From assembly GCA_042584825.1 (NCBI GenBank), contig JBHOSK010000002.1, forward strand, positions 1 through 60,757: a stretch of DNA of 60,757 bases, given 5' to 3'. Below the pieces are notes generated by a model, which was not told where the DNA came from, made no database searches, and saw only the letters and a program-made list of their open reading frames with translations. This document shows positions 1,828-41,116 of the stretch, piece by piece. The translations under genes were made by a program, and so were the position numbers. How positions within the stretch are numbered: position 1 is the first letter of the stretch; every line of letters starts with the position of its first letter. The DNA comes from Candidatus Aenigmatarchaeota archaeon (lineage in GTDB: Archaea; Aenigmatarchaeota; Aenigmatarchaeia; GW2011-AR5).

Positions 1828-3189
1828 ATGAAAAAAATATTAATTATTTTATTGGCTGTTGTTTTGATTAGTGGATGCACACAACAACAAGATAACTCAG
1901 GATCAATAAGTCAAAATGATGGCACTATACTAAATTGTGAAGAGGGATTTATCCTTACAGATGACTTATTATGCTGTCCGGATGCTGATGTTGATGGTAT
2001 GTGTGATACCCCCCCAGAGAACCAGCCGGAAAATTCACCACGACCACGAGATCATAATCTCGGTTTATGGCCACCTTCAAATTGTCAGGATATTGATGTT
2101 ACATTTACTTATTCCCCGATTCCAATAGAAGAAATCACACGTATTGGTCCTGCCGGGGTTTTAACAGTGCCGATTGCTGGTCATATAATTCCAAATGATC
2201 ACAATGCAATTGGATACTCTGGTGAAGAAGTTGATGTAATAATGCCTGCTGATGGTTTCCTTGTAATGGTGGAACGCCATCGATACGCCCCACCTCCGGG
2301 CGAGCCTCAGGTGAATCACTATCATCTATATTTCGAACATTCTTGTTCGCTCTTCACAGCCCTCCTCCACATATCAGAGCTGGATTCTGCCCTCTTAGAT
2401 GTGAGCGAGGAACTTAGAAATCTGGATACCAAAGAGCTGGAAAGAGACAGTGAAAACATTTGGCCAAGAATTCCCTTAACTGCTGGGCAGAAGATAGGAA
2501 CATCCAGCCAGTGGCAATTCCTGGGATCATTATCGGCAGACATACGAGTGGATAAACACCATTCAAATCCAGAGAGCTATTCAGGTGCGTCATGGAGACT
2601 GCATGCAACAACAATATTTGAATATTATGAAGGAACCCTGAAAGAACAGCTTTATGATAAAATACTACGTACAGCCGAACCCAGAGCTGGGAAGGCTAAT
2701 TACGATATAGATGGAAAACTTGTAGGAGGTTGGTTCCTTGAAGGTACTAATGGCATGGCCGGCCCTGATCCTTATTCTGAACCCAGACAATGCGGAAACA
2801 TCCCGTGTTCATACTGGGCTGGACATTTAGCATTCGTTTATGATTACATGGAGCCAGATTGGATACGGGTGCAGTTCGGATACGAACTGGGATCATCATT
2901 GCTCGGTCCATACGGTATTAAAGGGAACACACCTGATCCGGCAGATGTCTCTCCTGAAACAGGTCTGGTAAAATATGAACTTGTAAATCTCAAGGACGTG
3001 ACAATAGAGCGCGGTGTACAGGATTATATTGTCGGAAGTCCTATTTTTACTGAGAATGAGAATGAGGTTGTCGCAACAGTCCTCCTAGAAATGATAGATG
3101 ATATGACTGTCAAACTTGAGGTCTTTGTTGGTAAAACAACTTCTCAAGTTAGTGAGTTTACCGACAATGTAAATATCTATGTGAGATAA
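1828..3189 (+). CDS. secreted lipoprotein, paralog of preceding gene (M23-like region)
   Basis: Lipobox LISGC. Its start abuts the upstream stop (TAAATG). C-terminus ...VKYELV...VFVGKTTSQVSEFTDNVNIYVR aligns with ...VKYELV...LFIGKTGSQVDEFTDNADIYVR of ORF 409-1827. The central part is visibly GC-richer than its neighbours. Confidence 0.55.
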   Translation: MKKILIILLAVVLISGCTQQQDNSGSISQNDGTILNCEEGFILTDDLLCCPDADVDGMCDTPPENQPENSPRPRDHNLGLWPPSNCQDIDVTFTYSPIPIEEITRIGPAGVLTVPIAGHIIPNDHNAIGYSGEEVDVIMPADGFLVMVERHRYAPPPGEPQVNHYHLYFEHSCSLFTALLHISELDSALLDVSEELRNLDTKELERDSENIWPRIPLTAGQKIGTSSQWQFLGSLSADIRVDKHHSNPESYSGASWRLHATTIFEYYEGTLKEQLYDKILRTAEPRAGKANYDIDGKLVGGWFLEGTNGMAGPDPYSEPRQCGNIPCSYWAGHLAFVYDYMEPDWIRVQFGYELGSSLLGPYGIKGNTPDPADVSPETGLVKYELVNLKDVTIERGVQDYIVGSPIFTENENEVVATVLLEMIDDMTVKLEVFVGKTTSQVSEFTDNVNIYVR

Positions 3190-6754: not shown

Positions 6755-8191
6755 TCACAAATGTAAAAATGAGTCAGATGTATGTGTTTTGTTTTTTTTC
6801 ATCTTAGAGACAATTGCATTGTAATCATCTTCGAAAAAGAATTTGTCTTTGAATACTGGTTTCAAATCACTCATCCATTCAGCTTCTGGATCGAACTTTG
6901 CAAAAAATGGTCGATCAACCCAATCGGGATTTCTACCCTGAAGAAAACGCAATACAAAAACTTTTTGTTTTTTTATGTTCTGTACACCCACGACTTGCAC
7001 TTTTCCTGATTCGCAGGACATTGATGGTCCTCTTACAGTACGGGCAAGCCCACTCACATGTTCATATGCGTTTTTGAATATTTTCCATGCTTTATATAAC
7101 GGAACACCAAAATAATGCTGGGCACCAGTATCTCTTGCAACGAACATGTAATATGGTATACAGCCCAACGATATTTGTTTTTTCCACATTTCTACCCATA
7201 GTTTAGAATCATCGTTAATATGTTTCACCAAGGGTGATTGTGTTCTGATTATTGCTCCTGTTTCACGTACTTTTTCTATTGCAGCTTGTACAGCAGGCGT
7301 ATCGAGTTCTCGTGGATGATTGAAATGAGCCATTATAGCAAGATGTTTTCCTGAATCTATAATATCGGTGAATAATTTCAGAACTTTTTTTGAATCCTTG
7401 TCAGTAAGATATCTATAAGGCCAGTAACTTATTGATCTTGTTCCAATACGAATTGATTTCAGGTTAGGTAATTTAGATTCTAATAACGGACGTATATATG
7501 TTTCAAGAAATTCTACGTTCATAATCATTGGATCGCCACCAGTAAACAGTATATCTGTTATTTTTGGATGTTTTGATATGTACTTAACAAGTTTTTCTGT
7601 TTCTTGTGCCGCGAATTTCAATTTTTCTATACCTACGAATTGTGCCCAACGAAAACAGAACAAACAATATGCATGGCATGTTTGTCCTTGACTTGGAAAG
7701 AACAATGCAGTTTCCTCGTACTTATGTTGCATTCCTTCAAGTGGTTTGCCATCAACTTTAGGTACATTGTATTCCATCTGACCTGCAGGATGAGGATTAA
7801 GCTGAAGACGTATCTTGTCAGCAGTTTCTTTTATTTTTTTAGGATCTGCATTATCTTTTATTAGTTTTTCCATTTGTGTGAAGTGTCTTTTATGAAGCAG
7901 ATCCTTTTGAGGAAAATTAAGTGTAAACAAAGGATCATTAGGAACTTTATCCCAGTTTATTAATTGATTTATTACATAATTGTTTGTCTTAAACGGAAGT
8001 ACGTTTGCAACCACTTCCAGTTCTTTTAATCTTTTTTCAGGTAGTGATTTTAATTGTTTTATTTTTCTAAAATTTGCTAGAGAATATTGTTGATATTTTA
8101 GTGGTTTCACTAGTGCCATATGTTCATTATCGATTAAGTGATATAAATAAGTTCTATTGTATTCGGAGAGATTTGAGATTTTCTGTTTCAT
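6755..8191 (-). CDS. radical SAM protein, KamA (lysine 2,3-aminomutase) family
   Basis: CxxxCxxC cluster motif (CHAYCLFC), followed by FTGGDPMIM and overall KamA-like layout. 478 aa, with N- and C-terminal extensions. Confidence 0.7.
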   Translation of the reverse strand: MKQKISNLSEYNRTYLYHLIDNEHMALVKPLKYQQYSLANFRKIKQLKSLPEKRLKELEVVANVLPFKTNNYVINQLINWDKVPNDPLFTLNFPQKDLLHKRHFTQMEKLIKDNADPKKIKETADKIRLQLNPHPAGQMEYNVPKVDGKPLEGMQHKYEETALFFPSQGQTCHAYCLFCFRWAQFVGIEKLKFAAQETEKLVKYISKHPKITDILFTGGDPMIMNVEFLETYIRPLLESKLPNLKSIRIGTRSISYWPYRYLTDKDSKKVLKLFTDIIDSGKHLAIMAHFNHPRELDTPAVQAAIEKVRETGAIIRTQSPLVKHINDDSKLWVEMWKKQISLGCIPYYMFVARDTGAQHYFGVPLYKAWKIFKNAYEHVSGLARTVRGPSMSCESGKVQVVGVQNIKKQKVFVLRFLQGRNPDWVDRPFFAKFDPEAEWMSDLKPVFKDKFFFEDDYNAIVSKMKKNKTHTSDSFLHL

Positions 8192-8221
8192 TTAAAAGAA
8201 TATCCTTTTGTAGAATATAGT

Positions 8222-8737
8222 ATGAAGAATCGTAATACAGGGTTTTTGATAATAATAATTGCCATTTTGATAGGCTTTATAATATTCTCATTTAACATGG
8301 CCTTAACAGATATTGCAGTTAGTGCATGTTCGCATGGGCCCGAATGTCCAATGTGGGGAACAATAGATTTCCAAACAAACGTCAGTATGGGTGTAATGGT
8401 TTTTGTGATTATGATTGGTCTGTATTTAATCTTCTTTGGAAAAGAGGAAAAAATAATAAGAGAAGTTAGAACAATAAAACAGCAAGTTGAGCCAAAGAGA
8501 ATGACAAAAGGAAATTATAAAAAAATTATGAACAAACTAAATGCTGATGAAAAGGTTACGCTTGATAAAGTCATCGAGTCAGATGGAACAATTTTCCAAA
8601 GCGAGCTTGTTGACAAGACAAAATTAAATAAAGTTAAAATGACACGTATTCTGGATAGACTAGAAGGCATGGGTATAATAGAAAGAAGACGCCGTGGCAT
8701 GACAAATGTGATTGTTTTAAAACACGAAAAACAGTGA
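8222..8737 (+). CDS. membrane-anchored winged-helix (MarR-like) transcriptional regulator
   Basis: Two N-terminal TM helices, then a wHTH-like C-terminus (FQSELVDKTKLNKVKMTRILDRLEGMGIIERRRRG). Resembles the COG2512 architecture. Confidence 0.55.
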   Translation: MKNRNTGFLIIIIAILIGFIIFSFNMALTDIAVSACSHGPECPMWGTIDFQTNVSMGVMVFVIMIGLYLIFFGKEEKIIREVRTIKQQVEPKRMTKGNYKKIMNKLNADEKVTLDKVIESDGTIFQSELVDKTKLNKVKMTRILDRLEGMGIIERRRRGMTNVIVLKHEKQ

Positions 8738-8773
8738 AACTAGTTTCAAACAATTGTTAATATACTGTTTCAG
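8735..8773. promoter_or_regulatory. candidate operator: TGAAAC/GTTTCA half-sites around a TATA-like box
   Basis: Perfect palindrome GAAACTAGTTTC (8736-8747), adjacent palindrome AACAATTGTT, and a third GTTTCA half-site at 8767-8772. TTAATATAC lies about 25 nt upstream of ATG 8788. Confidence 0.3.
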
Positions 8774-8787
8774 TCTTAGAATGATGC

Positions 8788-9714
8788 ATGAGTAAGCGTC
8801 ATGATATTGATATAAAAGGCATGTCATGCAAAAACTGTTCAGATAAAATTGAGGCAAAGATAAATGAGTTAGGTGGCGTTGATAATATAAAAGTAGACCT
8901 GATAAAAAACAATGCCTCTGTATCTTATGATCCAAAGAAGATTAGTCTGAGCAAAATTAAATCAGAGATAATGTCCTTGGGGTATTCATGTGATGGAACA
9001 AGTGATAGTAGAAACACGACCATTTTACAGGGAGTGGGATATGCACTGGTTCCGCATATAGGTTGTATAGCTTTTATAGTCGGTTCCGTACTTGGTGTTA
9101 CTGTACTCATGGAATTTTTTAAGCCAATATTAATGAACAGATATTTTTTCCATGCTCTTATAGCGTTGTCATTGGGATTTGCAACACTATCGTCTGTTAT
9201 TTACTTACGAAAAAACGGATTATTATCATTAGCTGGAACAAAGAGAAAATGGCAATATCTATCCACTATGTATGGTTCAACAATAGGGATAAACCTTGTA
9301 TTATTCATGTTGATATTCCCTCTTCTTGCTAATGTATCTGCAGCAGGAATAACTGGAGCAGTTGTGGGAATCGGTGACTTAGCTGATAGTAGTTTAATTA
9401 AATTGTCTGTAGACATACCATGCCCTGGTCATGCACCTCTTATATCAGAGGAGCTGAAAAGTATAGAAGGCGTGCAAAACATACAATTCTCTTTTCCAAA
9501 CGTGTTCGATGTTATATACGATTCTACAGAGACGTCGAAGGGTGAGATGTTGTCTTTGGATGTGTTTGATGAATATCCAGCAACTGTTCTGGAGGAGAAA
9601 TCTAATGAGGAAGATTTATTAAAAGTTAATGAGCAACCAACCACCTCTGGTGGAAGTTGTTGTGGAGGTCCTGATTGTTCAGGACCTAGCGGTGGCTGTG
9701 GTTGTGGAGGATAG
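8788..9714 (+). CDS. heavy-metal-associated (HMA) domain / polytopic membrane fusion protein with Cys-Gly-rich tail
   Basis: N-terminal HMA motif GMSCKNC. About 4 TM helices. A second ferredoxin-like module (DIPCPGHAPLISEELKSIEGV). C-terminal tail SGGSCCGGPDCSGPSGGCGCGG. Confidence 0.6.
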   Translation: MSKRHDIDIKGMSCKNCSDKIEAKINELGGVDNIKVDLIKNNASVSYDPKKISLSKIKSEIMSLGYSCDGTSDSRNTTILQGVGYALVPHIGCIAFIVGSVLGVTVLMEFFKPILMNRYFFHALIALSLGFATLSSVIYLRKNGLLSLAGTKRKWQYLSTMYGSTIGINLVLFMLIFPLLANVSAAGITGAVVGIGDLADSSLIKLSVDIPCPGHAPLISEELKSIEGVQNIQFSFPNVFDVIYDSTETSKGEMLSLDVFDEYPATVLEEKSNEEDLLKVNEQPTTSGGSCCGGPDCSGPSGGCGCGG

Positions 9715-12363: not shown

Positions 12364-12370
12364 ATGTAAT

Positions 12371-12464
12371 TGGGCCCGACGCGATTCGAACGCGCGACCT
12401 TCTGGTCCGAAGCATCGCCGATCAGATGATCTCAGACGCTCTATCCAAGCTGAGCTACGAGCCC
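12371..12464 (-). tRNA. tRNA-Arg(UCG) with a 19-nt intron at a non-canonical position (about 30/31, genomic 12414-12432)
   Basis: Hand-folded cloverleaf. Acceptor GGGCTCG/CGGGCCC, D arm GCTC-AGCTTGGATA-GAGC. The anticodon arm TCTG|G-CTTCGGA-CCAGA forms only after removing AGATCATCTGATCGGCGAT. Variable loop AGGTC, T arm GCGCG-TTCGAAT-CGCGT, discriminator A. CCA is not encoded. Confidence 0.8.
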
Positions 12465-13205
12465 ATAATAAAACATTTTTGGGTTTAGCTGTTTTTCTAA
12501 TATTTGTTTGCGATCTTTATATGTTGTATGTGGTGGACAAAATCCCCATTTTTTCCATATTTCATATCTACTGTATTTTGTATGATTTTTACATCCAATG
12601 AGTTTCATCCAATTCTCTACATTATTACCTCTTACCCAAATTCTAAATCTCTTATGCTCTTTAATGTTTTTTGGTGTATGATAATCTGTCCAATATACTA
12701 TTTGTAAATCATTAAGAACTCTTTTCATGTTAAAAAACAATGCTTTAGATATGCTTGTTAAAATCAATCGTGGATAATAATGATATCTCCTTTTGAATTT
12801 TGTGTAATTTTTATCATATCTTCTGTCGAATGTCAAACACCCATCTGTATCTAAAACTCCTCTGAGAAAAAGAGCTTTCGTCTTAATATTTTTAGATTTC
12901 AAAACAAATTTCGGAACACTGACGGTTAATGACTTTTTACCATAAGGAAACCCAAAGCCGTGCATTTTTCTTATAACTTTTTCATCTCTTATTACAAACC
13001 CGTATGTGTTTCTAGATTTAAACAACTTTCCTTTAATTTTTATGTCAAATACTTTTGAAAACAGAGGAATAACATAATTATCATAATAATCTTTCTCTTC
13101 TATAGATCCGCTTATATCTAGTTCAATTCGTTTTCCATCATTTCTTAAATATCCATCACCAGCATGTATTCCACATATCTCGGCTAGTTTTTCTTCGAAT
13201 TTCAT
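12441..13205 (-). CDS. free-standing LAGLIDADG-type (DOD) endonuclease-like protein
   Basis: Two LAGLIDADG-like motifs (GIHAGDGYL and LRGVLDTDGCL) about 100 aa apart. The last 8 codons overlap the 5' end of the co-directional tRNA-Arg. Confidence 0.65.
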   Translation of the reverse strand: MKFEEKLAEICGIHAGDGYLRNDGKRIELDISGSIEEKDYYDNYVIPLFSKVFDIKIKGKLFKSRNTYGFVIRDEKVIRKMHGFGFPYGKKSLTVSVPKFVLKSKNIKTKALFLRGVLDTDGCLTFDRRYDKNYTKFKRRYHYYPRLILTSISKALFFNMKRVLNDLQIVYWTDYHTPKNIKEHKRFRIWVRGNNVENWMKLIGCKNHTKYSRYEIWKKWGFCPPHTTYKDRKQILEKQLNPKMFYYGLVAQLG

Positions 13206-21699: not shown

Positions 21700-22644
21700 T
21701 TATAAAATTATAGAAACCAAACATATAGTGATCATATATTGATATATACGATTTAAAAAACCACTATCTGAAAGGCTTCTTGAAATTATTGATGGTGGAT
21801 TCACTGGATTAAGTAAAAACTCGTTTGGGGTTCTTGCTTTATTAGAAAACCTAACTTCATCTATAGTCCCATTAAAAGCATAACCAGTTAATCCAGCCCC
21901 GGTGTTAGAATTTGCGCCTATCCAACCTATAGTACTTATTAATCCTATACCACCACCATAGATAACTGATGCGTTTAATTCACCATCAATATACAAATTC
22001 ATGATTCCGGTTTCATTATTATATGTTCCTGCAACATGATACCATTGATTTGGTTGCATTGGTGAAGTTGATTCAAGATTATAGTATTGTGATGAAAAAT
22101 CATTTATAATAGTCCACTGAATTAATCCTTTATGAGTAATAGACATTTCTATGTGTCTATCCCACGATGATGACCTGCCAACTATATATCTATACCACGA
22201 TGATCCATCAGCTTTTGTATATCTATATTGTGTTGGTGCTCCGCTAAATGCTATACTAAATATTTGACTCTTAACTTCACCCACTGTTTTGTTTGGATAA
22301 ATCCAAGCTTCAAACGAGAAATTGACTGGGGCAAATGCGATATGATTTGGTAATGATACGTTGCCCATGTTCTCTGTTCCTACACCAGATAATTGTAGTG
22401 CATGTGTTCCTACTTTTACGTTATCTGTAACATATCCATAACTTCCCACGGCAGTTCCATGGAATCCATTACTACTTGAGTCTGTTGCATCACCATCAAA
22501 GTGATATAGTGCTATTGTCCATTCATCATCTATTAGTTGTGTTGCTACATATGATGTATGAACTGGTACAGATAAAATTACAACTAATATATATACAAAT
22601 ATTCCCACTAGCAGTAACTTTCTATAACCCAACCTTATCACCAA
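21700..22644 (-). CDS. membrane-anchored LamG (concanavalin A-like lectin) domain protein
   Basis: N-terminal TM helix. LamG_3-like pattern LYHFDGDATDSSSNGFHGT...FSFEAWIYPN...WYHVAGTYNNETGIMNLYIDGE...GTIDEVRFSN. Confidence 0.7.
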   Translation of the reverse strand: MVIRLGYRKLLLVGIFVYILVVILSVPVHTSYVATQLIDDEWTIALYHFDGDATDSSSNGFHGTAVGSYGYVTDNVKVGTHALQLSGVGTENMGNVSLPNHIAFAPVNFSFEAWIYPNKTVGEVKSQIFSIAFSGAPTQYRYTKADGSSWYRYIVGRSSSWDRHIEMSITHKGLIQWTIINDFSSQYYNLESTSPMQPNQWYHVAGTYNNETGIMNLYIDGELNASVIYGGGIGLISTIGWIGANSNTGAGLTGYAFNGTIDEVRFSNKARTPNEFLLNPVNPPSIISRSLSDSGFLNRIYQYMITICLVSIIL

Positions 22645-22713
22645 ATGCTTTATTATTGATATAAATTAAGTCGATGTTCTTATTAAAGATTCTTAGTTAT
22701 CCCAGAGGTTAGT

Positions 22714-22753
22714 GAGCCCCGGTAGGATAACTGGCAAGATTTCAAGTCCCTAA
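22714..22753 (-). repeat. degenerate copy of tRNA-Thr 3'-end core plus 27-nt arm (copy F)
   Basis: gAGCCCCGGTAGG... has 2 mismatches to the 13-nt core. 35/40 identical to copy D at 28115-28154. Overlaps the stop codon of the HD gene. Confidence 0.7.
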
Positions 22754-23385
22754 ATTTTTCCAGACCATTCTGATTTTAATCTTTCTAAAAATTCAACCAT
22801 GAAATCATGTCTTTCTTGAGCTAAATTTCTGGCAAATTCTGTATTCATCGTATCTTTAAGATTGAGTAGTTTTGTGTAGAAATGTCTGATAGCAGATGTG
22901 AGTTGACCTACATGATAATCTTCTGGTAGTTTCTTCATATCATCTGGAGTGCCGAATGGTTCGTTAAGCTTTGCAGATACATAGAAGCATCTACCAATTC
23001 CTATTGCCCCTAACCCATCCAATCTATCAGCATCTTGAAGAATTTGACATTCTTTTGAAAGTTTTGTTTTTTTCTTTACAAAATCGTAATCTTCATGATG
23101 GTGTATTATCTCAATAACTTTCTCAACCTTATCTTTTGGAAAATTCAATGCTTCTAAATCTTTTCTTATTTCTTCCATTGCTTCCTCACTAACATGATAT
23201 TCTCTTCCCTTGAATGCACACCAGTCATGCATATAACAAGAAGCAGTGATAATTAATTTATCTCCTCCTTCGTGTTCATGAATTTCTCCTGCTAAATTAG
23301 CAACCCTTACTGCATGTTCATATCCATGTGCATCATCATTTTGAGCTAATCTTGTTTTCGCTAATTCTTGAATTTTGTTAATCAT
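22750..23385 (-). CDS. HD-domain metal-dependent phosphohydrolase
   Basis: HGYEHAVRV ... CYMHDW ... HHHED pattern of the HD superfamily. Confidence 0.8.
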   Translation of the reverse strand: MINKIQELAKTRLAQNDDAHGYEHAVRVANLAGEIHEHEGGDKLIITASCYMHDWCAFKGREYHVSEEAMEEIRKDLEALNFPKDKVEKVIEIIHHHEDYDFVKKKTKLSKECQILQDADRLDGLGAIGIGRCFYVSAKLNEPFGTPDDMKKLPEDYHVGQLTSAIRHFYTKLLNLKDTMNTEFARNLAQERHDFMVEFLERLKSEWSGKI

Positions 23386-23427
23386 ATAATAGAAAATTTC
23401 ACTGTAACGCTTAAAAAAATAAAATTT

Positions 23428-23474
23428 AGCCCCGGGAGGGCAGAATGTAACTACTTCGTAATCCCACGTCCTTG
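23428..23474 (-). repeat. tRNA-Thr 3'-end core plus 34-nt arm (copy A)
   Basis: AGCCCCGGGAGGGCAGAATGTAACTACTTCGTAATCCCACGTCCTTG is identical over 47 nt to copy B. Confidence 0.9.
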
Positions 23475-23765
23475 AATATATTGGGATGATAAGTAGTATT
23501 AACTAATTGGTGATGAAAATTTTATATCTTTAAGTAATACGGGATGTATAATTATATTATAAGGCTGGTAATACGGAATCACGGTTTCTAAAAGTGATGA
23601 TTTCATAAACAGATACAATGCAACGATTTTGCTGGAAAAGACATTTCAAATTTGGTGTGTACGATATTTTAGAGATTTATAGATAATTTGTAAAAGTTTT
23701 TAAATTTCCGAAATTCAGATGTCGGAATTGTGTTATCCTTATTAAAAAATATAGATGTGATAAAT

Positions 23766-23873
23766 ATGAGAAAATGTATAGCGTGCGATGAATCTTTTGG
23801 ATTTCATAGAAACTACAGTGGCAAATGCATTAGTTGCTTGGATACTGAAATGAAAGATAGAATAGAATTATAG
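23766..23873 (+). CDS. possible 35-aa zinc-ribbon peptide
   Basis: MRKCIACDESFGFHRNYSGKCISCLDTEMKDRIEL has two CxxC pairs. It is the only plausible ORF between repeat copies A and B. Confidence 0.3.
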   Translation: MRKCIACDESFGFHRNYSGKCISCLDTEMKDRIEL

Positions 23874-23930
23874 ATGTAGAAAAATAAATGAATAGAAAAA
23901 AAGATAAAGGGGTGTGAAACTTTTTTACAT

Positions 23931-23977
23931 AGCCCCGGGAGGGCAGAATGTAACTACTTCGTAATCCCACGTCCTTG
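23931..23977 (-). repeat. tRNA-Thr 3'-end core plus 34-nt arm (copy B)
   Basis: 47/47 identical to copy A. Confidence 0.9.
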
Positions 23978-24076
23978 TGATATATATGTCTAAGATTCCA
24001 TTTAAGAATAAAATAACTAAAGGCAATAACTTTTAATTAAGCTCTATTGCAACTTCAGTTTTATCTAAACTTGATT

Positions 24077-24385
24077 CTATTTCCTCAAAATACCCAGTTG
24101 ATAGCTCAAATGTTTTAGTGAGTCGGTTATTTTGGGTTTGAAAACTATAATACCCCAACTTGTAGTTATTCCTCCAGTAATTATACCACCTAAAGCCAAA
24201 TCCGTAAGCCAATTTGCATTGATAAGGAATAACTCACCATACCAGAGATGGTCTATTGCTCCGAAAAGTGCACCACCGAGAAGCATTATATTCAGCCAAA
24301 ATCCATGGAGATTTTTCTTATGAGATACTTTTCTTCCGATAAAACCAACCATTGTTGCTATCAAAGGAATAATCCAGCAAACCAT
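24077..24385 (-). CDS. small integral membrane protein (3 TM)
   Basis: Hydrophobic 102-aa ORF. No family recognised. Confidence 0.45.
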   Translation of the reverse strand: MVCWIIPLIATMVGFIGRKVSHKKNLHGFWLNIMLLGGALFGAIDHLWYGELFLINANWLTDLALGGIITGGITTSWGIIVFKPKITDSLKHLSYQLGILRK

Positions 24386-24514
24386 ATATAATTGTATATC
24401 ACAACTGTATAAAATATTAAATTTTAATAGGCTTAAAATATGAAAAAATAAATAATGGTACCTTTAAATAGATTATGAATATATATTCATTATTAATAAT
24501 TAGAGGTGGAAAAT

Positions 24515-24646
24515 ATGCCAAGAAGAGATAGAACAGGACCAGAAGGTAAAGGACCAAAAACTGGACGACAGTTGGGAAAATGTGAAGGAACAGAACCAAT
24601 TGGAAGAGGCTTTGGTAGAAGATTTAATCGACAAAAAGAGGATTAA
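24515..24646 (+). CDS. DUF5320-like small basic protein
   Basis: MPRRDRTGPEGKGPKTGRQLGKCEG... matches the remembered DUF5320 N-terminus. GGTGGA lies upstream. Sits 2 nt before the DUF134 gene, a pairing remembered from other genomes. Confidence 0.55.
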   Translation: MPRRDRTGPEGKGPKTGRQLGKCEGTEPIGRGFGRRFNRQKED

Positions 24647-24648
24647 AA

Positions 24649-24963
24649 ATGCCAAGACCAAGACAGTTTCGTAGAGTGAAAGCAATACCAGGCGTTACAT
24701 ATTTCAAACCTGCTGGAGTTAGGATGATTGACTTAGAAGAATCTATCGTAACAGTAGATGAATTTGAGGCTTTACGTTTGAAAGATATGATGGGTCTTGA
24801 ACAGGAAGAAGCAGCAAAGAAAATGAACATATCACAACCCACATTTCATCGTTTGGTTTTGTCTGCCAGAAAAAAGATAGCTGATGCAATTGTGAATGGT
24901 AAAGCAATAAGGATAGAAGGTGGCAATTACATGTTACGAGGACGTTTTGGAAAAGGTAAATGA
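24649..24963 (+). CDS. DUF134 (UPF0251) predicted DNA-binding protein
   Basis: MPRPRQFRRV...YFKPAG...EALRL.D..GL.QEEAA.KM.ISQPTF.R is the characteristic DUF134 pattern. Confidence 0.75.
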   Translation: MPRPRQFRRVKAIPGVTYFKPAGVRMIDLEESIVTVDEFEALRLKDMMGLEQEEAAKKMNISQPTFHRLVLSARKKIADAIVNGKAIRIEGGNYMLRGRFGKGK

Positions 24964-24972
24964 ATCGAGTAT

Positions 24973-24985
24973 AGCCCCGGGAGGG
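24973..24985 (-). repeat. tRNA-Thr 3'-end 13-nt core (copy C)
   Basis: Exact AGCCCCGGGAGGG, 10 nt after the DUF134 stop. Confidence 0.8.
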
Positions 24986-25130
24986 TTGGAGAACATTGGT
25001 TTGAATTGTACTATAGATATATTGGTCAGAGGAATATAAGAGGGTTGTTATTATCTAAATTCTTTCAGCCTCTCGAAAAAAACCTTTTCCAGGGTTTTGT
25101 AACTTATTTTGACATTTAACCATCATATAA

Positions 25131-26237
25131 CTATAATGAGCCAAAAATTAATCCGGCAATTGTAGAGTAGATTACAACCAAAATTATATAAACTAAAGTT
25201 TTCTTTGTTCCCATTATACCCTTTACTACCAGCATATTAGGCAAACTAAGACTTGGTCCTGCCAAAAGTAATGCAAGAGCAGGACCGTTTGACATACCTT
25301 TGGCCATTAGTGCCTGTAGTATTGGTACTTCTGTCAGGGTGGAAAAGTACATGAACGCTCCAAACACAGAAGCCACAAGGTTCCCAAAAAGTGTGTTTTG
25401 TCCAACAACACTTTCTATTATTTCTTGTGGTAGTATGGGTATTATAAAACCTGCAATGAAAACTCCTATGAACAAATACGGGATCAATAGTTTTGAGAAT
25501 TTCCACGTCTCACTTAACCATTCTTTTGTATCATTTTTCTGGAATTTGAATATGACGATTAAAATTGCTGATATAATAAAAATAGTTATAATTACATATT
25601 TCGTAATTGTATTTATCTGCAAACCATTCACAACAATGACCATAACCATTGAGAAAAAGAAAATAAGAAGTGTTGTTTTGTTTATTGACGGTTTTTTATT
25701 ATTTTGAAAAAATAATTTTTTTGTTCCGATTTTTTCTCTGAATATCAATTCCATTGATAAACCGACAATTATTGATAATATGATAGCAAATATTATTCTC
25801 GCAAATCCAATATCGAATCCCAGTACACTAAATGTAAGGAAAATCGCGGCAATGTTGATAGCAGGACCCGAAAACAGAAATGTTACAGCAGGCCCCAAAC
25901 CCGCACCACCTTTTCTTATTCCCGCGAACAATGGTAGTATTGTGCATGAACATACTGCAAGAACAGCTCCAGAAACAGAAGCTATTGAATATGAAATATA
26001 TTTTTTGCTTTCTGGTCCGAGATACTTTAAAACAGTTTCTTTTCTTATAAAAACTATTATTGCTCCTGCAATGAAAAAGGCTGGCAATAAACATGTAAGA
26101 AAATGTTCTGTTGCATATTCATGAAGTAAAGAAACCCCGTTTAATATGGCACCATTAAATATGCTATTATCTATTGGCATGAAAAAGAAAATTAGAAAAA
26201 TTAACACAATTAATAGTAATGAGTTTCTTTCTTTCAT
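25131..26237 (-). CDS. polytopic permease (COG0701 / ArsP-like family)
   Basis: About 10 TM helices and a CSC motif (LAVCSCTILPLFAGI). Typical neighbours: small thioredoxin, CcdA and ArsR. Confidence 0.65.
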   Translation of the reverse strand: MKERNSLLLIVLIFLIFFFMPIDNSIFNGAILNGVSLLHEYATEHFLTCLLPAFFIAGAIIVFIRKETVLKYLGPESKKYISYSIASVSGAVLAVCSCTILPLFAGIRKGGAGLGPAVTFLFSGPAINIAAIFLTFSVLGFDIGFARIIFAIILSIIVGLSMELIFREKIGTKKLFFQNNKKPSINKTTLLIFFFSMVMVIVVNGLQINTITKYVIITIFIISAILIVIFKFQKNDTKEWLSETWKFSKLLIPYLFIGVFIAGFIIPILPQEIIESVVGQNTLFGNLVASVFGAFMYFSTLTEVPILQALMAKGMSNGPALALLLAGPSLSLPNMLVVKGIMGTKKTLVYIILVVIYSTIAGLIFGSL

Positions 26238-26239
26238 GA

Positions 26240-26479
26240 TTATTTCTCCTTTTCTTTTATGATCTTCAACAATTCTTCATCACTCGGCATGCCGACATAG
26301 ACAGGCTTTCCGTCTATTAATATGGCGGGGCTTCCCATTATTCCTCTCTTCACGAGTTCAGCTACGTCTTTTTTGTATTCGATCTTCGCATCTATTTTTC
26401 CCTCTTCTTTGAGTTTCTTTACTTTATTGTAAAGTGCCTCGCATTTTGGGCATCCAGAGCCGATAATTGTTATTTGCAT
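26240..26479 (-). CDS. small thioredoxin-fold redox-active disulfide protein
   Basis: 79 aa, with the CxxC GSGCPKCEAL near the N-terminus. Confidence 0.75.
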   Translation of the reverse strand: MQITIIGSGCPKCEALYNKVKKLKEEGKIDAKIEYKKDVAELVKRGIMGSPAILIDGKPVYVGMPSDEELLKIIKEKEK

Positions 26480-26491
26480 TTATATGTCACC

Positions 26492-27199
26492 TCATATGAT
26501 CAATACGCTTAAACAATATATTCCCACGATTATGAACACAAGTGATACAATCCTTCTTGTCCACTTGTCTATTACATTAACCTTATTCATAGTAGATCCG
26601 AGTCTTGAAACACCAAAACCAAGTATTAGTGAAAATATAATTACGGGTATTCCAGTTGCAAAAGCAAATATTGATGGAAGTATCAATGCGTCACTCATAA
26701 TAACTGCAAGTGGGATAAGCATCCCAAAAAAAAGGACCGCACTAAATGGACAGAAAGCAAGGGCGAATAAAGCCCCAAGAACAAATGATCCAACGACCCC
26801 TTTATTTACCAACGATTCCTTCAACCTGCTTACTCCTTTGATGTTGAACGACGGGAACCTTATTTTTCCACTGAGTAAAACTCCTATGATTATCAACAAA
26901 GGCCCCAGGAAAAATTCACCACCACCCCGAAGAACTATTGAAATTGATTGTGTGCTTATTCCTATCCACACAATGGCAGCTGCTATCCCGACATATGTAA
27001 ACATTCTTCCTAATGTATATGCAAGACCGAAAAACAACGTCTTTCTGTTATCACCCGCTTTTCTTGAGACAGCAGCAATTGCCGTGATGTTTGTTGCCAT
27101 GGGACATGGGCTCATCGCCATCATAATACCAATGAAAAATGCCGCTAATGGTACAATCTCACTTGTTCCCATTACCTCCACGAATGCCATTATGTCCAT
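26492..27199 (-). CDS. CcdA/DsbD-family transmembrane thiol-disulfide electron transporter
   Basis: 6 TM helices with Cys-Pro in TM1 (MSPCPMA) and a second conserved Cys (AFCPFS). The fully overlapping plus-strand ORF was rejected. Confidence 0.7.
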   Translation of the reverse strand: MDIMAFVEVMGTSEIVPLAAFFIGIMMAMSPCPMATNITAIAAVSRKAGDNRKTLFFGLAYTLGRMFTYVGIAAAIVWIGISTQSISIVLRGGGEFFLGPLLIIIGVLLSGKIRFPSFNIKGVSRLKESLVNKGVVGSFVLGALFALAFCPFSAVLFFGMLIPLAVIMSDALILPSIFAFATGIPVIIFSLILGFGVSRLGSTMNKVNVIDKWTRRIVSLVFIIVGIYCLSVLII

Positions 27200-27203
27200 T
27201 TAA

Positions 27204-27680
27204 TCAACCTTTTAGCTTCTTCTCTATTACACCTTTGATATATTCCTTGCACTTTTTCATATCGCTTGTCTTGTACCAAACATTGATATTATGCTCTTTT
27301 GAAAAACTACCATCCTTAAGGTAAACCCCAATCCATAGAGAAGATCCTATTGTGCCGTACTGTTGAACAATATCTACGTTCTCAGGCAAGTCACTGTTAA
27401 TATGATCGAACATTACGAGACCAGATTTCTGCTCATCTTGGAAATATTCGTTTACAGCACTTTCTGCGCATTTACCTACATTGATGCAGCCTTGGCATTG
27501 ATTGTTCCCGTGAAAATGGAATACTTCAATTTTTTCAACATTTTTTGAATACGGAATATCTTTTCTAATGATCAAAGTATTATCAGCTGAATTAATGTTT
27601 GTATTACTTTCTTCCTGATTCACACACCCCAAAGAAATAAGAATTGTCATTAAAAGGAAAATGATAATTATTCTTTTCAT
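27204..27680 (-). CDS. secreted CxxC lipoprotein
   Basis: Signal peptide plus lipobox (LISLGC) and HGNNQCQGC motif. ATG 27680 overlaps the ArsR stop (ATGA). Confidence 0.5.
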   Translation of the reverse strand: MKRIIIIFLLMTILISLGCVNQEESNTNINSADNTLIIRKDIPYSKNVEKIEVFHFHGNNQCQGCINVGKCAESAVNEYFQDEQKSGLVMFDHINSDLPENVDIVQQYGTIGSSLWIGVYLKDGSFSKEHNINVWYKTSDMKKCKEYIKGVIEKKLKG

Positions 27681-27985
27681 TTTCTTCCCTCCATACAACA
27701 ACTCTTTTTCAAAATCTTCCCTTTTGAGATACCCAGCGCTTTAAAAATATCATAAACTTTATGATTATTTATTCTGTAGAACACTTTTTTTCCTTCTCTC
27801 CTAGAAGTAAGAATTTCTGAGCTGACGAGCTTACTTAACTGAATAGATACAGTTGATTGTGTCCTTTTCACATGAGGGAATATCTCGCATACACATTTTT
27901 CTCCACCAAGAAGAAAATACACTATTTTATATCTTGTATCGTCTGATAAAGCTTTCAATAAAATCAGATCTTTTTTTCTATACAT
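27677..27985 (-). CDS. ArsR/SmtB-family metalloregulator
   Basis: wHTH with a CVC metal site (GGEKCVCEIFPHV...TVSIQLSKL). Confidence 0.85.
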   Translation of the reverse strand: MYRKKDLILLKALSDDTRYKIVYFLLGGEKCVCEIFPHVKRTQSTVSIQLSKLVSSEILTSRREGKKVFYRINNHKVYDIFKALGISKGKILKKSCCMEGRK

Positions 27986-28114
27986 AAAAACCTATTTACA
28001 TATTGATACATGTCAATGTATAAAGTTATCGCTTACCCGTTTTATGAAAAAAATAATTGTTTATCAGAATTTTTAGAAATAATTACAAAAGAAATTTTTG
28101 AATATTTTGTTCTT

Positions 28115-28154
28115 GAGCCCCGGGAGGGTAGTTGACAAGATTTCAAGTCCCTAA
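28115..28154 (-). repeat. tRNA-Thr 3'-end core plus 27-nt arm (copy D)
   Basis: Exact 13-nt core. The arm ...CAAGATTTCAAGTCCCTAA is shared with copy F. Confidence 0.85.
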
Positions 28155-28187
28155 TATCTAATAGATTTTAATACTTTTTCAAGTTAA

Positions 28188-28886
28188 ATGAGAAAAGGTA
28201 ATACAATGGATGACATCAAGAAATACACTGTTGGACTAATAAACACAATGGGTATAAATGAATTTAGCCCTGCATGGAAAGACGATGAAGAGTTTTTAGA
28301 GTTATGTAAAAAAATGTATGATAAAACACTTGTGAGCCATCATAGACTGTTTTTCTTGTATCAATTTGCCAAATATGCAAATGCTTTGTCAGGCAACTTT
28401 GCACAGATAGGTATTTTTAAAGGAGGTTCGGCAAAGATGGTTTCACTTGTCAAGGACAAATCAAAAAAGTTCTATTTGTTCGATACTTTTGAGGGTTTGC
28501 CAGAACCAGATCCAGTAACAGATAAACATGATGAAGCTCATGTAAAAGGAGAGTTTGCAGAGCCAATCGAGAATGTTAAAAAACTTTTCGAGGATGATGA
28601 CAGTATTGAACTTGTAAAAGGCGTGTTTCCTGAAACTGGAAAAATAATAGAAAATGAAAAGTTTTCTTTTGTCTACATTGATGTTGATGTTTACAAGTCT
28701 AATTATGAAACTCTGGAGTTCTTTTATGACAGGATGGTTCCAGGAGGAGTAATAATTTTCGATGATTATGAATGGAAGAAAACACCAGGAATTAAAAAAT
28801 CAATATGCGATTTTCTTGAAAAAAGAGGGGCTAAAGAGAGGCCGATAATAACAACAAAATATCAATGCATTATTATAAAATTGTAA
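28188..28886 (+). CDS. TylF/macrocin-O-methyltransferase-like SAM-dependent methyltransferase
   Basis: GIFKGGS ... YIDVDVYKS ... GGVIIFDDY pattern. Confidence 0.7.
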   Translation: MRKGNTMDDIKKYTVGLINTMGINEFSPAWKDDEEFLELCKKMYDKTLVSHHRLFFLYQFAKYANALSGNFAQIGIFKGGSAKMVSLVKDKSKKFYLFDTFEGLPEPDPVTDKHDEAHVKGEFAEPIENVKKLFEDDDSIELVKGVFPETGKIIENEKFSFVYIDVDVYKSNYETLEFFYDRMVPGGVIIFDDYEWKKTPGIKKSICDFLEKRGAKERPIITTKYQCIIIKL

Positions 28887-28892
28887 AAATTA

Positions 28893-28908
28893 AGCCCCGG
28901 GAGGGATT
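28893..28908 (-). repeat. tRNA-Thr 3'-end core, 16-nt identity (copy E)
   Basis: AGCCCCGGGAGGGATT matches the tRNA gene for 16 nt. Lies 7 nt after the methyltransferase stop. Confidence 0.85.
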
Positions 28909-28966
28909 GAGCAAATGGTTCAAAGCCCTACTATATCCTTAAAAAGATTATTTCTATATTTTTAAT

Positions 28967-29326
28967 ATGACAATAAAAATATTAGGTGCTCATAAATCAT
29001 CTACAAGAAATGCATTTACATTTGAGAAAACACAGGAATTTATCAAAGGATTTGTCGGATTCCTACATGATTTGGATTTCTCAGAATTTGACATAATGAC
29101 GTGCCACTTTGCTCATAAAATAGACAAAAAGACAAATGAACCTATCATGACAAGTGAGGTTGATATAAATGAATATATAGATACGACCTTCAATTTTGAG
29201 AATGGAAAATATAACATAGAACTCATATTTGGCAAATCGAAAATATTTGTTTACATATATACTAAAGAAGATAAACAACAGGAAATTTTGGACAAAATAC
29301 AAAAATTTAGTTCTTTTGATTTATGA
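28967..29326 (+). CDS. hypothetical protein
   Basis: 119-aa ORF between repeat copy E and the tRNA. No motif recognised. Confidence 0.4.
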   Translation: MTIKILGAHKSSTRNAFTFEKTQEFIKGFVGFLHDLDFSEFDIMTCHFAHKIDKKTNEPIMTSEVDINEYIDTTFNFENGKYNIELIFGKSKIFVYIYTKEDKQQEILDKIQKFSSFDL

Positions 29327-29357
29327 TATCGCGGAAAAACAAAAAGAAAGAAAAATC

Positions 29358-29473
29358 AGCCCCGGGAGGGATTCGAACCCCCAACCTTCTGATATCATTA
29401 AGTCACAGACCCGTCGGGCCTCTTAATATCAGACCATACAAGTCAGATGCTCTACCAGCTGAGCTACCGAGGC
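29358..29473 (-). tRNA. tRNA-Thr(UGU) with canonical 37/38 intron of 43 nt (genomic 29394-29436)
   Basis: Acceptor GCCTCGG/CCGGGGC, D arm GCTC-AGCTGGTA-GAGC. Anticodon arm TCTGA-CTTGTA[intron]A-TCAGA. Variable loop AGGTT, T arm GGGGG-TTCGAAT-CCCTC, discriminator U. CCA is not encoded. Confidence 0.9.
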
Positions 29474-39153: not shown

Positions 39154-40107
39154 TTATTCTATTGTGTAGTATGTCAAAACTAAACGTGGTGTGTAACCAA
39201 TATTTTCTGCATCTTCTGACCAAGGAGTATAATGGTTACCATCAGCTTCCCCCGTGGTTTTAAATCCAAGACTAAACCAACCTTTTGAAATGCTTTGTGT
39301 TATGTTGTTGTTGGCACCATTTCCTAAAGTTATGTTAATATGAGCATTTATCGGAAACTCGCTTATTGGCTTTTCTGAGTAAAATTCACCAAGAGCTATA
39401 GTATCATATAATTCTTCGTTGGTGACAAAATCATCTGATTTAGCTGGTAGGTTTCTGACTTCTACAACATCAATGCCAGAGAAACTGTGTCGTCTTAAAC
39501 TAATGTTTGCTTCTGTTATTACTGCGTTAAAAGGTAATTGAGAAATATCAAAATCAATAAAACCTCTATTTATGTTACCGTCACGATGTCCAATGTAAAA
39601 GAAGGTGTTAAACCAATCTAAAATAAATAAATTGTTTACAAATCCATCCTCAATAATAAAATCATTTTCTGGAACATCACTCCAACTTAGAGTTATTGTT
39701 TGCAAATCAGAAATTGTAACAGTTCTTGGGAAGGCTGTTGCACTTGATGATGCTACTCTCAATTGATTTGTGCCTTCGCCTGGATGTGGGCCGAATGAAA
39801 CATTTATTTTGGCAATTCCATCTTCTGTTATGTTCATGTTGTCAGATGGTATTTCCTCATTGCCTAAATAGACCTTAATATCAGTTACTATTCCTTGACC
39901 ACAGTTTCTAACATATATTCCGTCAGCAGTTACAGTTTCAATTCTCAGACATTTACTGAGACGCTCTGATTGGTGTTCTACCTGAGTTTGTGCTGTTTCA
40001 CCAGAACTCGTTATAACACCTTGGAATATGGTGAAAGCTGAGGCTGTTACTACGATTACAATAACAAGTAATAATATAATCGCTATGATTGGGGTTATTC
40101 CACGCAT
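39154..40107 (-). CDS. archaeal type IV pilin-like adhesin (tandem paralog 1)
   Basis: Class III signal peptide MRGITPIIAIILLLVIVIVV. First 137 aa are about 96% identical to ORF 40139-41116. Divergent C-terminal module FIDFDISQLPFNAVITEANISL...GWFSLGFK...PRLVLTYY. Confidence 0.8.
   Translation of the reverse strand: MRGITPIIAIILLLVIVIVVTASAFTIFQGVITSSGETAQTQVEHQSERLSKCLRIETVTADGIYVRNCGQGIVTDIKVYLGNEEIPSDNMNITEDGIAKINVSFGPHPGEGTNQLRVASSSATAFPRTVTISDLQTITLSWSDVPENDFIIEDGFVNNLFILDWFNTFFYIGHRDGNINRGFIDFDISQLPFNAVITEANISLRRHSFSGIDVVEVRNLPAKSDDFVTNEELYDTIALGEFYSEKPISEFPINAHINITLGNGANNNITQSISKGWFSLGFKTTGEADGNHYTPWSEDAENIGYTPRLVLTYYTIE
39697..40107 (-). repeat. about 411-bp near-identical segment (5' halves of tandem pilin-like genes), copy 1
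   Basis: Encodes aa 1-137, with 6 aa differences from copy 2. Similarity stops abruptly at codon ~138. Confidence 0.9.
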
Positions 40108-40138: not shown

Positions 40139-41116
40139 TTATGATATTCTATAATACGTAACAACAAGACGTGGTGCATCATCTTCTGGGTTTGTGGTTT
40201 CTTCTGTATGAAAACTAATACGATCATTTAAACCCACTGGCGGGTCATCGTCAAAGAATTTTATTCCTAAACTAAACCAGCCCTGTGAAATGGCCTTTGT
40301 CATTTCAGTTGTGGCGGTGTTTCCTAAAGTAATATTTATACGGTCACCTATTACCCAAGCAGCATTCCATGGTTCTGATGTATATAGATCACCTGCAGAT
40401 ATATTATTATAAAGATAAAGATTTTCAGCATCCATTCCGTCACCCCAATTACTTCCCTTTGGTGTGAGTTTTCTGAATTCTATATCACGATCTTCTGATT
40501 CTACAACTGATGTTATTTCAAGACTAATATTAGCTTGAGTTATAACGGCATTTGATGGTAAAGATGATGTATGAAAATCAATATAGCTTCGTGCTACGGT
40601 TGCACCAATTGATTGAAGTTTCATAGTTCCAGGACCTATACCGGCTTTAAATCCTGAGTTAATTACGTCACCATCTTCAAGAATATCGTTATAGTCTAAT
40701 TCTATTGTCTGTAAACCAGAAATTGTAACAGTTCTTGGGAAGGCTGTTGCACTTGATGATGCTACTCTCAATTGATTTGTGCCTTCGCCTGGATGTGGGC
40801 CGAATGAAACATTTATTTTGGCAATTCCATCTTCTGTTATGTTCATGTTGTCAGATGGTATTTCCTCATTGCCTAAATAGACCTTAATATCAGTTACTAT
40901 TCCTTGACCACAGTTTCTAACATATATTCCGTCAGAAGATACAGATTCAATTCTCAGGCATTTACTGAGACGCTCTGATTGTTGTTCTACCTGAGTTTGT
41001 GCTGTTTCACCAGAACTCGTTATAACACCTTGGAATATGGTGAAAGCTGAGGCTGTTACTACGATTACAATAACAAGTAATAATATAATCGCTATGATTG
41101 GGGTTATTCCCTTCAT
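40139..41116 (-). CDS. archaeal type IV pilin-like adhesin (tandem paralog 2)
   Basis: Class III signal peptide MKGITPIIAIILLLVIVIVV. C-terminal module YIDFHTSSLPSNAVITQANISL...GWFSLGIK...PRLVVTYY. Confidence 0.8.
   Translation of the reverse strand: MKGITPIIAIILLLVIVIVVTASAFTIFQGVITSSGETAQTQVEQQSERLSKCLRIESVSSDGIYVRNCGQGIVTDIKVYLGNEEIPSDNMNITEDGIAKINVSFGPHPGEGTNQLRVASSSATAFPRTVTISGLQTIELDYNDILEDGDVINSGFKAGIGPGTMKLQSIGATVARSYIDFHTSSLPSNAVITQANISLEITSVVESEDRDIEFRKLTPKGSNWGDGMDAENLYLYNNISAGDLYTSEPWNAAWVIGDRINITLGNTATTEMTKAISQGWFSLGIKFFDDDPPVGLNDRISFHTEETTNPEDDAPRLVVTYYRIS
40706..41116 (-). repeat. about 411-bp near-identical segment, copy 2
   Basis: See copy 1. Confidence 0.9.

Follow-up and report, generated by a model that had tools for sequence, protein, structure and literature searches.

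The window analysed here is a stretch of 60,757 bp from a Candidatus Aenigmatarchaeota archaeon (contig JBHOSK010000002.1, positions 1 to 60,757), and it contains a tRNA-Thr(UGU) gene whose 3' end is repeated several times behind it, with a small gene or operon between successive repeats. The repeat pattern is real and statistically robust. The repeated 13-mers are probably the cores of attachment (att) sites in a tandem array that grew by successive rounds of site-specific recombination at the 3' end of the tRNA-Thr(UGU) gene. Judged from its sequence, the locus is best read as a tRNA-anchored tandem accretion of att-bounded, non-autonomous units. The enzyme was most likely a tyrosine recombinase; we infer the recombination, its order in time and the enzyme type from the layout.

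The repeated core is the last 13 nt of tRNA-Thr (29358-29370). In tRNA orientation it consists of CCCTC from the 3' strand of the T-stem, CCGGGGC from the 3' strand of the acceptor stem and the discriminator T. The tRNA gene has a 43-nt intron in the anticodon loop at the canonical position, which ARAGORN identifies when introns are allowed and misses by default. On the plus strand, exact copies of the 13-mer AGCCCCGGGAGGG are found at 23428, 23931, 24973, 28116, 28893 and 29358, and a copy with 2/13 positions changed (AGCCCCGGTAGGA) lies at 22715. The search for cores allowed up to 2 mismatches, and 100 dinucleotide-preserving shuffles served as the background. Seven matches were found against 0.11 expected, and 0/100 shuffles get to seven. 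The remainder of the window has no further copy at this threshold.

The copies of the core are all confined to 6.8 kb on the 3' side of tRNA-Thr, where they are oriented like the tRNA and stand between open reading frames (ORFs). The only contact with an annotated gene is at 22715, where the arm of the copy overlaps the stop codon of an HD hydrolase gene. The spacing from core start to core start, read toward the tRNA, is 713, 503, 1042, 3143, 777 and 465 bp. Under uniform placement, the confinement of six extra copies to 11% of the window has a p value of about 2e-6, to be multiplied by 1/64 for the common orientation. Five of the six non-tRNA cores are 13/13 identical to the tRNA, and only the most distal one (22715) has substitutions. 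The discriminator marks the exact end of identity to the tRNA in every copy. The other limit is position 61, save in the 28893 copy, which has 16 nt of identity. The initial annotation had listed these core positions, the 2-mismatch copy and the 16-nt extension, and all were reproduced by the motif scan. Its claims of co-orientation, 3'-side intergenic placement and confinement to the vicinity of tRNA-Thr were likewise reproduced across the 60 kb. The 8-nt suffix CCGGGGCT has two extra matches, at 21895 and 44423, both within coding sequence and probably due to chance. Relative to neighbouring genes, the core copies are upstream, downstream or antisense, without a constant relation. The anchor and the core copies are as follows.

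29358..29473, minus strand: tRNA-Thr(UGU), Rfam RF00005, 60.4 bits over the full model; putative attL-side anchor of the array
28893..28940, minus strand: exact core (28893-28905) and its 5' arm in tRNA orientation (28906-28940)
28116..28154, minus strand: exact core (28116-28128) and arm (28129-28154)
24973..25030, minus strand: exact core (24973-24985) and arm (singleton)
23931..23977, minus strand: exact core (23931-23943) and arm
23428..23474, minus strand: exact core (23428-23440) and arm, the same as in the 23931 copy
22715..22775, minus strand: core (22715-22727) with 2 mismatches (TCCTACCGGGGCT in tRNA orientation) and arm; most distal copy

The arms, which lie on the 5' side of the cores in tRNA orientation, fall into families. 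The arms at 23428 and 23931 are 100% identical over 48 nt (23427-23474 as reference), and for the pair at 22715 and 28116 the identity is 85% over 46 nt (22708-22753). These are the two families that had been claimed earlier, and both are correct. The 28893 arm joins the 22715/28116 family through its similarity to the 28116 arm (shuffle p = 0.002). The 24973 arm stands alone: it is weakly similar to the 23428 arm (p = 0.047) and not significantly similar to the tRNA. The arm sequences were not found elsewhere in the window. When the arms are compared with the region of the tRNA upstream of the core, the six shuffle p values are 0.0025 (23931), 0.026 (23428), 0.037 (28893), 0.09, 0.10 and 0.47. 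The 23931 arm ATATCAcAAGGacGtGGGaTTaCGAA aligns to the tRNA segment ATATCAGAAGGTTGGGGGTTCGAA, which spans the end of the intron, the 3' strand of the anticodon stem, the variable loop and the T-stem and extends into the T-loop. The 22715 arm retains ATCAGAATGGTCTGG, which resembles ATCAGAAGGTTGG of the tRNA. Between the tRNA-like arm and the core lie about 11-20 extra nt, depending on the copy (about 12 in 23931). To all appearance, the arms are degraded, indel-bearing copies of the tRNA's own upstream region. The arms at 23428, 23931 and 24973 also keep similarity to the end of the tRNA's intron.

The step from about 65% identity with indels in the arms to 13/13 identity in the cores is abrupt. 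It suggests a crossover boundary, since uniform decay would not leave five perfect 13-mers. The 30-nt 3' flanks of the cores have no mutual similarity (all p > 0.09). The arm families together with the unrelated 3' flanks point to a one-sided recombination site, resembling the att sites of archaeal integrases, for which the 3' part of a tRNA alone is characteristic (PMC7253208). The arms retain a T-arm-like pairing potential (AGGG...CCCT and TTGA...TCAA). RNA folding of all six copies gave no signal relative to shuffles (z = -0.13 to +1.5), and an Rfam scan of the window returned only tRNAs and the signal recognition particle (SRP) RNA, with no family on the core copies.

A second genome shows a related arrangement at a different tRNA sequence. 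On the 5' side of its tRNA-Thr, the window has a conserved cation/proton antiporter, and the antiporter of the 405-kb Aenigmarchaeota-type contig L001 is 54% identical to it. The tRNA-Thr(UGU) of L001 (3113-3312) has a 126-nt intron, a different acceptor stem and the 3' end CCCTTCGGTGGCT. Its last 8 nt, CGGTGGCT, have same-orientation copies downstream at 7794 and 9059, both intergenic, with 11 nt common to both. This 8-mer has four matches in 21 kb versus 0.14 expected, the fourth falling in the CxxC codons of a small ORF. The L001 repeat matches that genome's own, differing tRNA-Thr, which ties the repeats to the tRNA and makes a protein operator or a generic intergenic motif less likely. 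The link between the repeats and tRNA-Thr that the earlier reading had drawn is thus borne out by clustering, by orientation and by co-variation with the tRNA in L001.

The two L001 units are tiny and densely coding. The first encodes thioredoxins, ArsR, Trx3 and ArsP, whose 66-79% identity to window proteins is above the 54% of the antiporter. The second (7922-9033) consists of a nucleotidyltransferase of the NTP_transf_2 family, which matches candidate defence models (PADLOC candidates PDC-M05A and PDC-S09), and a partner ORF of 176 aa. The two may form a toxin-antitoxin or defence pair of the nucleotidyltransferase type. The arm downstream of ArsP has only a weak and unconvincing similarity between L001 and the window. 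Just upstream of the L001 tRNA-Thr, at about 1720-1855 (minus strand), there is an uncalled ORF that has two CxxC pairs and a length of about 45 aa; it is not similar to the zinc-ribbon ORF of unit 5 in the window. The introns of the orthologous tRNA-Thr(UGU) genes differ: 43 nt in the window, 126 nt in L001 and none in a third locus, L003 (4948-5021). The antiporter is on the 5' side of tRNA-Thr and divergent from it in the window and in L003, and in L001 it is co-oriented with the tRNA and placed beyond the distal end of the array. Its placement in L001 is as expected from an inversion of the segment that comprises the tRNA and the array.

Serial recombination at the tRNA 3' end could proceed as follows. 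Each incoming DNA would carry an attP site in which a diverged tRNA-Thr-like arm precedes the exact sequence of tRNA positions 61-73. Strand exchange inside the 13 nt would re-form an intact tRNA from the incoming 3'-end copy, and the earlier 3' end, with everything behind it, would be pushed one unit outward. The resulting order would be the tRNA, unit 1, arm and core, unit 2, arm and core, and so on to the oldest core at 22715 and the chromosomal flank. The recombinase either would act in trans from outside the 60-kb window, its gene residing in the host genome or on a plasmid or virus, or would have been lost; action in trans, to which the initial annotation inclined, is one possibility. 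Because the incoming site must restore a working tRNA, identity is expected to end at the discriminator, as it does in every copy. An intact tRNA gene is present at one junction of the array according to both Rfam and ARAGORN. That the most distal core alone is substituted is consistent with 22715 being the oldest. The model predicts that the cores are co-oriented and confined to the 3' side, that arms derived from the elements lie 5' of each distal core, that conservation ceases at the tRNA end and that degradation is greatest in the most distal core, and all of these are seen. Serial site-specific integration at a tRNA 3' end, which the initial annotation had said would produce this layout, is the best reading of the cores given their co-orientation, the one-sided arms and the co-variation with the tRNA.

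The array is divided into six units of 0.46-3.1 kb with genes on both strands, in agreement with the small segments claimed earlier. They are listed from the tRNA outward, with lengths from core start to core start.

28906..29357: unit 1, 465 bp, nearest the tRNA; 119-aa ORF at 28967-29326 (plus strand) without a family match
28129..28892: unit 2, 777 bp; TylF-like O-methyltransferase at 28188-28886 (plus strand), Pfam PF05711, 6.8e-25
24986..28115: unit 3, 3143 bp; minus-strand operon of five genes (Pfam), namely ArsR at 27677-27985, a 165-aa putative lipoprotein at 27204-27701, a DsbD/CcdA-like membrane protein at 26492-27199, Thioredoxin_3 at 26240-26479 and an ArsP_1 permease at 25131-26237
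23944..24972: unit 4, 1042 bp; 102-aa membrane protein at 24077-24385 (minus strand), 44-aa Arg/Gly-rich ORF at 24516-24647 (plus strand) and DUF134 regulator at 24649-24963 (plus strand), PF02001, 3.7e-29
23441..23930: unit 5, 503 bp, mostly non-coding; 35-aa zinc-ribbon ORF (CxxC...CxxC) at 23766-23873 (plus strand), weak match to phrog_12902
22728..23427: unit 6, 713 bp, most distal; HD hydrolase at 22750-23385 (minus strand), PF01966 2.6e-11 and phrog_3921 1.5e-25

Pfam confirmed the gene labels given earlier, with the exception of 'DUF5320' for the 44-aa ORF 24516-24647, which has no Pfam match. Unit 5 is bounded by the identical 48-nt arm-plus-core repeats. The cargo appears to be accessory and horizontally acquired, largely from a gene pool shared by the candidate phyla radiation (CPR) and the archaea of the Diapherotrites, Parvarchaeota, Aenigmarchaeota, Nanoarchaeota and Nanohaloarchaeota (DPANN), and its foreign affinities are apparent from homologues. 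Among the listed clusters, the 119 best for the ArsP permease show 64-73% identity and come from Patescibacteria/CPR, Nanobdellota and others, and the ArsR-Trx3-permease core recurs in unrelated genomic contexts. The best homologues of the TylF-like protein are 53-58% identical, and the only named source among the top matches is the CPR bacterium Candidatus Magasanikbacteria. Two contexts of TylF homologues that were retrieved look bacterial, and one adjoins genes resembling those of a type IV secretion system (T4SS). Permease and TylF homologues across phyla and in varied contexts support the accessory character that the initial annotation ascribed to these genes. The HD protein and the protein of the 119-aa ORF had no match on viral contigs in two scans, and the window's cargo proteins had no match to PADLOC defence models. 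PHROGs gave only matches of unknown or generic function for the HD, methyltransferase and DUF134 proteins.

The ArsR-Thioredoxin_3-ArsP module, with or without the DsbD/CcdA-like protein and the lipoprotein, shows 64-79% protein identity across DPANN, CPR and other lineages. It is found at 25131-27985 of the window, at 5200-7704 of L001 and in loci L083-L095, and it appears to be a promiscuous cross-domain operon. In contig L217 (5-9.7 kb), a TylF homologue of 55% identity directly follows PrgI-like, TraC-like and VirB4/TraG-like genes. This contig looks bacterial and is possibly from CPR, and the context may be that of a conjugative element.

Several observations weigh against serial integration as the origin of the array. 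Pfam detected no integrase, recombinase, transposase or Cas1 family in the scanned ORFs, which were all 44 with 170 aa or more plus the smaller ones of the array, so the earlier statement that no recombinase is present holds for the 60-kb window. Mobile-element hallmark genes are absent from the six window units and the two L001 units, and the six window units have no replication or structural genes. No pseudogene debris is visible, and the intergenic gaps, at less than about 330 nt, are too short for integrase remnants. No Int(N) or Int(C) fragments abut the cores, whose neighbours are the HD, TylF, DUF134, ArsR and ArsP genes. The units are unusual in that all are 0.46-3.1 kb, none has a mobile-element gene and two adjacent ones have identical 48-nt sites. 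If six full-size elements had decayed to single genes, the time this takes would be difficult to square with five perfect cores. Such decay should damage the cores, which favours either the capture of small cassettes in trans or selection on the cores. Replication of the pattern in L001 has its own limits: the copies have only 8-11 nt in common with their tRNA, their arms are not tRNA-like, and in other loci a single match to a 13-mer with 2 mismatches is a background-level event.

Comparison with relatives adds further points of this kind. We compared 80 antiporter-linked loci from GTDB genomes, and tRNA-Thr is adjacent to the antiporter in L003 only, where no repeat copies occur within the 4.9 kb examined. 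No close relative occurs in the searched collections (the antiporter is about 55% identical at best), which therefore offer no empty-site or presence/absence comparison. Arm patterns had no match in viral contigs in two scans, the arm-plus-core pattern had none in genomic contigs, and an arm 19-mer had only a chance match in metagenomes, inside an epimerase gene (L090). In L218 and L219, the gene listings have no gene between the antiporter and its neighbours. A pattern search for the tRNA 3' half returned one match, in L002, with an unrelated anticodon.

A possible but doubtful alternative is that the locus is an active integron-like capture platform in which small mobile cassettes, served by a recombinase encoded elsewhere, use the tRNA-Thr 3' end as an attI-like site. 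For DPANN archaea of the Aenigmarchaeota type, the 3' end of tRNA-Thr would then dock the capture of small arm-plus-core cassettes, which we regard as just as doubtful. This alternative differs from serial att-site recombination only in that the units would enter small and stay mobile instead of being remnants. It fits the six window and two L001 units, all tiny, densely coding and without mobile-element debris, and the diverse, horizontally acquired cargo. The one-sided site is at the same end of each unit, and the sites are alike, forming families that share arm, insert and core. The five perfect cores suggest recency or selection, and the 48-nt sites of two adjacent units are identical. Integrons, the reported archaeal ones included, likewise form a chain of small units, mostly of one to a few genes, each with one similar site at the same end, and carry diverse horizontal cargo. 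However, no recombinase adjoins the array or occurs elsewhere in the 60 kb, and there is no attI or common promoter. The array is anchored at a tRNA, and its units, in mixed orientation and with upstream regions of their own, are unlike integron cassettes. By inspection, the sites lack the R''/L''/L'/R' symmetry of attC, including the R' and R'' boxes, and any GTTRRRY-type box. Their folding, computed as RNA only, is at background, and they have no Rfam match. The same layout can also arise passively.

The remaining alternatives do without att-site recombination. It is improbable that the cores imitate the tRNA 3' end as functional cis elements or small RNAs, a class that covers processing or termination signals, decoys for tRNA enzymes, tRNA-Thr-pairing sequences, ArsR or DUF134 operators and the 3' pieces of split tRNAs as in Nanoarchaeota. 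A 13-mer that has G or C at 12 positions and is perfect five times in a genome of 33% GC, and the T-arm-like pairing potential of the arms, would suit such a function, and split tRNA genes were first found in DPANN archaea. Yet the folding energies of the six copies are no better than those of shuffles, no Rfam family matches, the copies have no consistent relation to neighbouring genes, and the L001 motif follows that genome's tRNA, which is against a protein operator. Split-tRNA 3' halves were rejected as a candidate by inspection, because in no copy can the 7 nt before the core and the 5 nt preceding them fold into a T-arm, and the extra nucleotides interrupt the T-loop. It is very improbable that the cores are target-site duplications of a casposon, an IS200/IS605-type element or non-autonomous derivatives moved in trans. 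Casposons do target tRNA 3' ends, produce 14-15-bp duplications and form tandem arrays with short direct repeats between units (PMC6563490, PMC4779613), and units without an enzyme of their own recall miniature derivatives. Against this, an inverted-repeat search found no terminal inverted repeats at the unit edges, and Cas1, polymerase B and transposase genes are absent from the window. Moreover, the units are ordinary genes and not element ends, and the conserved arm is one-sided and derived from the tRNA. We give the slimmest chance to a locus with no history of mobile DNA, in which the repeats are leftovers of local tRNA-Thr duplications, or chance or low-complexity matches kept by gene conversion. 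The arms do derive from the intron-containing tRNA-Thr of this lineage. Among 124 listed bacterial tRNA-Thr(UGU) genes, extra 3'-end copies nearby are almost all whole duplicated tRNA genes, and none of the 124 has more than two. But decay at the level of the arms (about 35% divergence and indels) would not spare 13/13 positions in five copies, 13 nt are too short for homologous gene conversion, chance is excluded by the shuffles, and the intervening genes are mutually unrelated and foreign-like.

Serial att-site recombination has parallels among known elements, and the initial annotation went too far in stating that no described system resembles the locus, since both tandem arrays at tRNA sites and integrase-less units with attL and attR have been documented (PMC6563490, PMC5704250). 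Tandem arrays of tyrosine-recombinase elements at one site have been described, and archaeal att cores have a median length of 17 bp and range down to 8 bp (PMC6563490). Partial tRNA copies remain after integration (PMC9897764). Archaeal integrated elements (SSV-type suicidal integrases, pNOB8/pTN3-type integrases and the cryptic elements of Thaumarchaeota) therefore share with the window an att site at the tRNA 3' end, short cores, arrays and partial tRNA copies. In contrast to them, no Int(N), Int(C) or intact integrase is present at the cores, and the units are smaller than the typical size of at least 5-10 kb.

Cis-mobilizable elements (CIMEs) lack an integrase, keep attL and attR and take part in tandem accretion, in which newcomers insert at a resident att site (PMC5704250). 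CIME arrays of streptococcal ICEs (integrative conjugative elements) and IMEs (integrative mobilizable elements) have direct repeats of the target 3' end and an intact tRNA at one end (PMC5704250), as does the window. Their units, like the six here, keep both att sites without integration or transfer genes, stand in tandem and share the internal att sites. They differ from the present units, every one of which is without a recombinase or hallmark gene, in being several to tens of kb long, as compared with 0.46-3.1 kb, and in host, here a DPANN archaeon. CIMEs are defined by decay from an autonomous element, and no element-like genes or debris are present in the units. Integrative mobile elements exploiting Xer (IMEX) lack an integrase, use the host Xer at dif in trans and stack in tandem at one chromosomal site. 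The window resembles them in having integrase-less units piled at one site. Unlike dif, the site is a tRNA 3' end, and neither an Xer-type gene nor a dif-like site was identified in the window.

Genes pass between domains among the DPANN archaea and CPR bacteria, whose genomes are tiny, but little is known of the machinery by which foreign genes become fixed in their chromosomes. In two distant Aenigmarchaeota-type genomes, CPR-like genes or small operons are stacked behind tRNA-Thr and bounded by copies of its end. The locus is notable for its miniature units, its lack of a recombinase in the window, its DPANN host and its CPR-like cargo, and it would be more so if mobility in trans proved true. 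If the units are remnants, the array clearly documents integration that happened repeatedly and was followed by extreme streamlining. If they are mobile in their present form, it would be an integron counterpart that is anchored at a tRNA and works without a linked integrase. It would then represent a new class of platform for gene capture, as well as a new source of recombinases whose sites are short and defined. Such cassettes would give symbionts with reduced genomes a dedicated route to sample the genes of a CPR/DPANN community. The last 8-13 nt of a tRNA, repeated downstream in the same orientation, can serve as the search key for more arrays.

The surroundings of the array are those of a DPANN archaeal chromosome. 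The window is AT-rich (31-38% GC) and encodes an archaeal SRP RNA, MCM, TBP, EF-2, ribosomal protein S7, AspRS and the CCA-adding enzyme, as well as many LamG proteins and pilin-like proteins with class-III signals. The genes flanking the array are lineage-typical; the best matches of the antiporter are all archaeal, at no more than 56% identity, and come from metagenome-assembled genomes (MAGs) of Aenigmarchaeota and Nanoarchaeota. A 16-nt segment of the ArsR coding sequence (27933-27948, plus strand) is 94% complementary to the junction of anticodon loop and intron in the tRNA-Thr (29427-29442), which is probably due to chance, given the number of position pairs compared. A second tRNA of 96 nt is located at 12370-12465 (minus strand; Rfam 46.5 bits). 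ARAGORN calls it 'Asp(atc)', an implausible anticodon, and it probably has an intron and a different identity; no repeats of its 3' end lie nearby. Its 5' end is overlapped by a 254-aa ORF (12441-13205, minus strand) with a weak match to LAGLIDADG_3 (E = 5.5e-4). A direct repeat of 300 nt with 97% identity (39694-39993 and 40703-41002) lies inside two adjacent pilin-like paralogues (39154-40107 and 40139-41116) and suggests a recent duplication or gene conversion.

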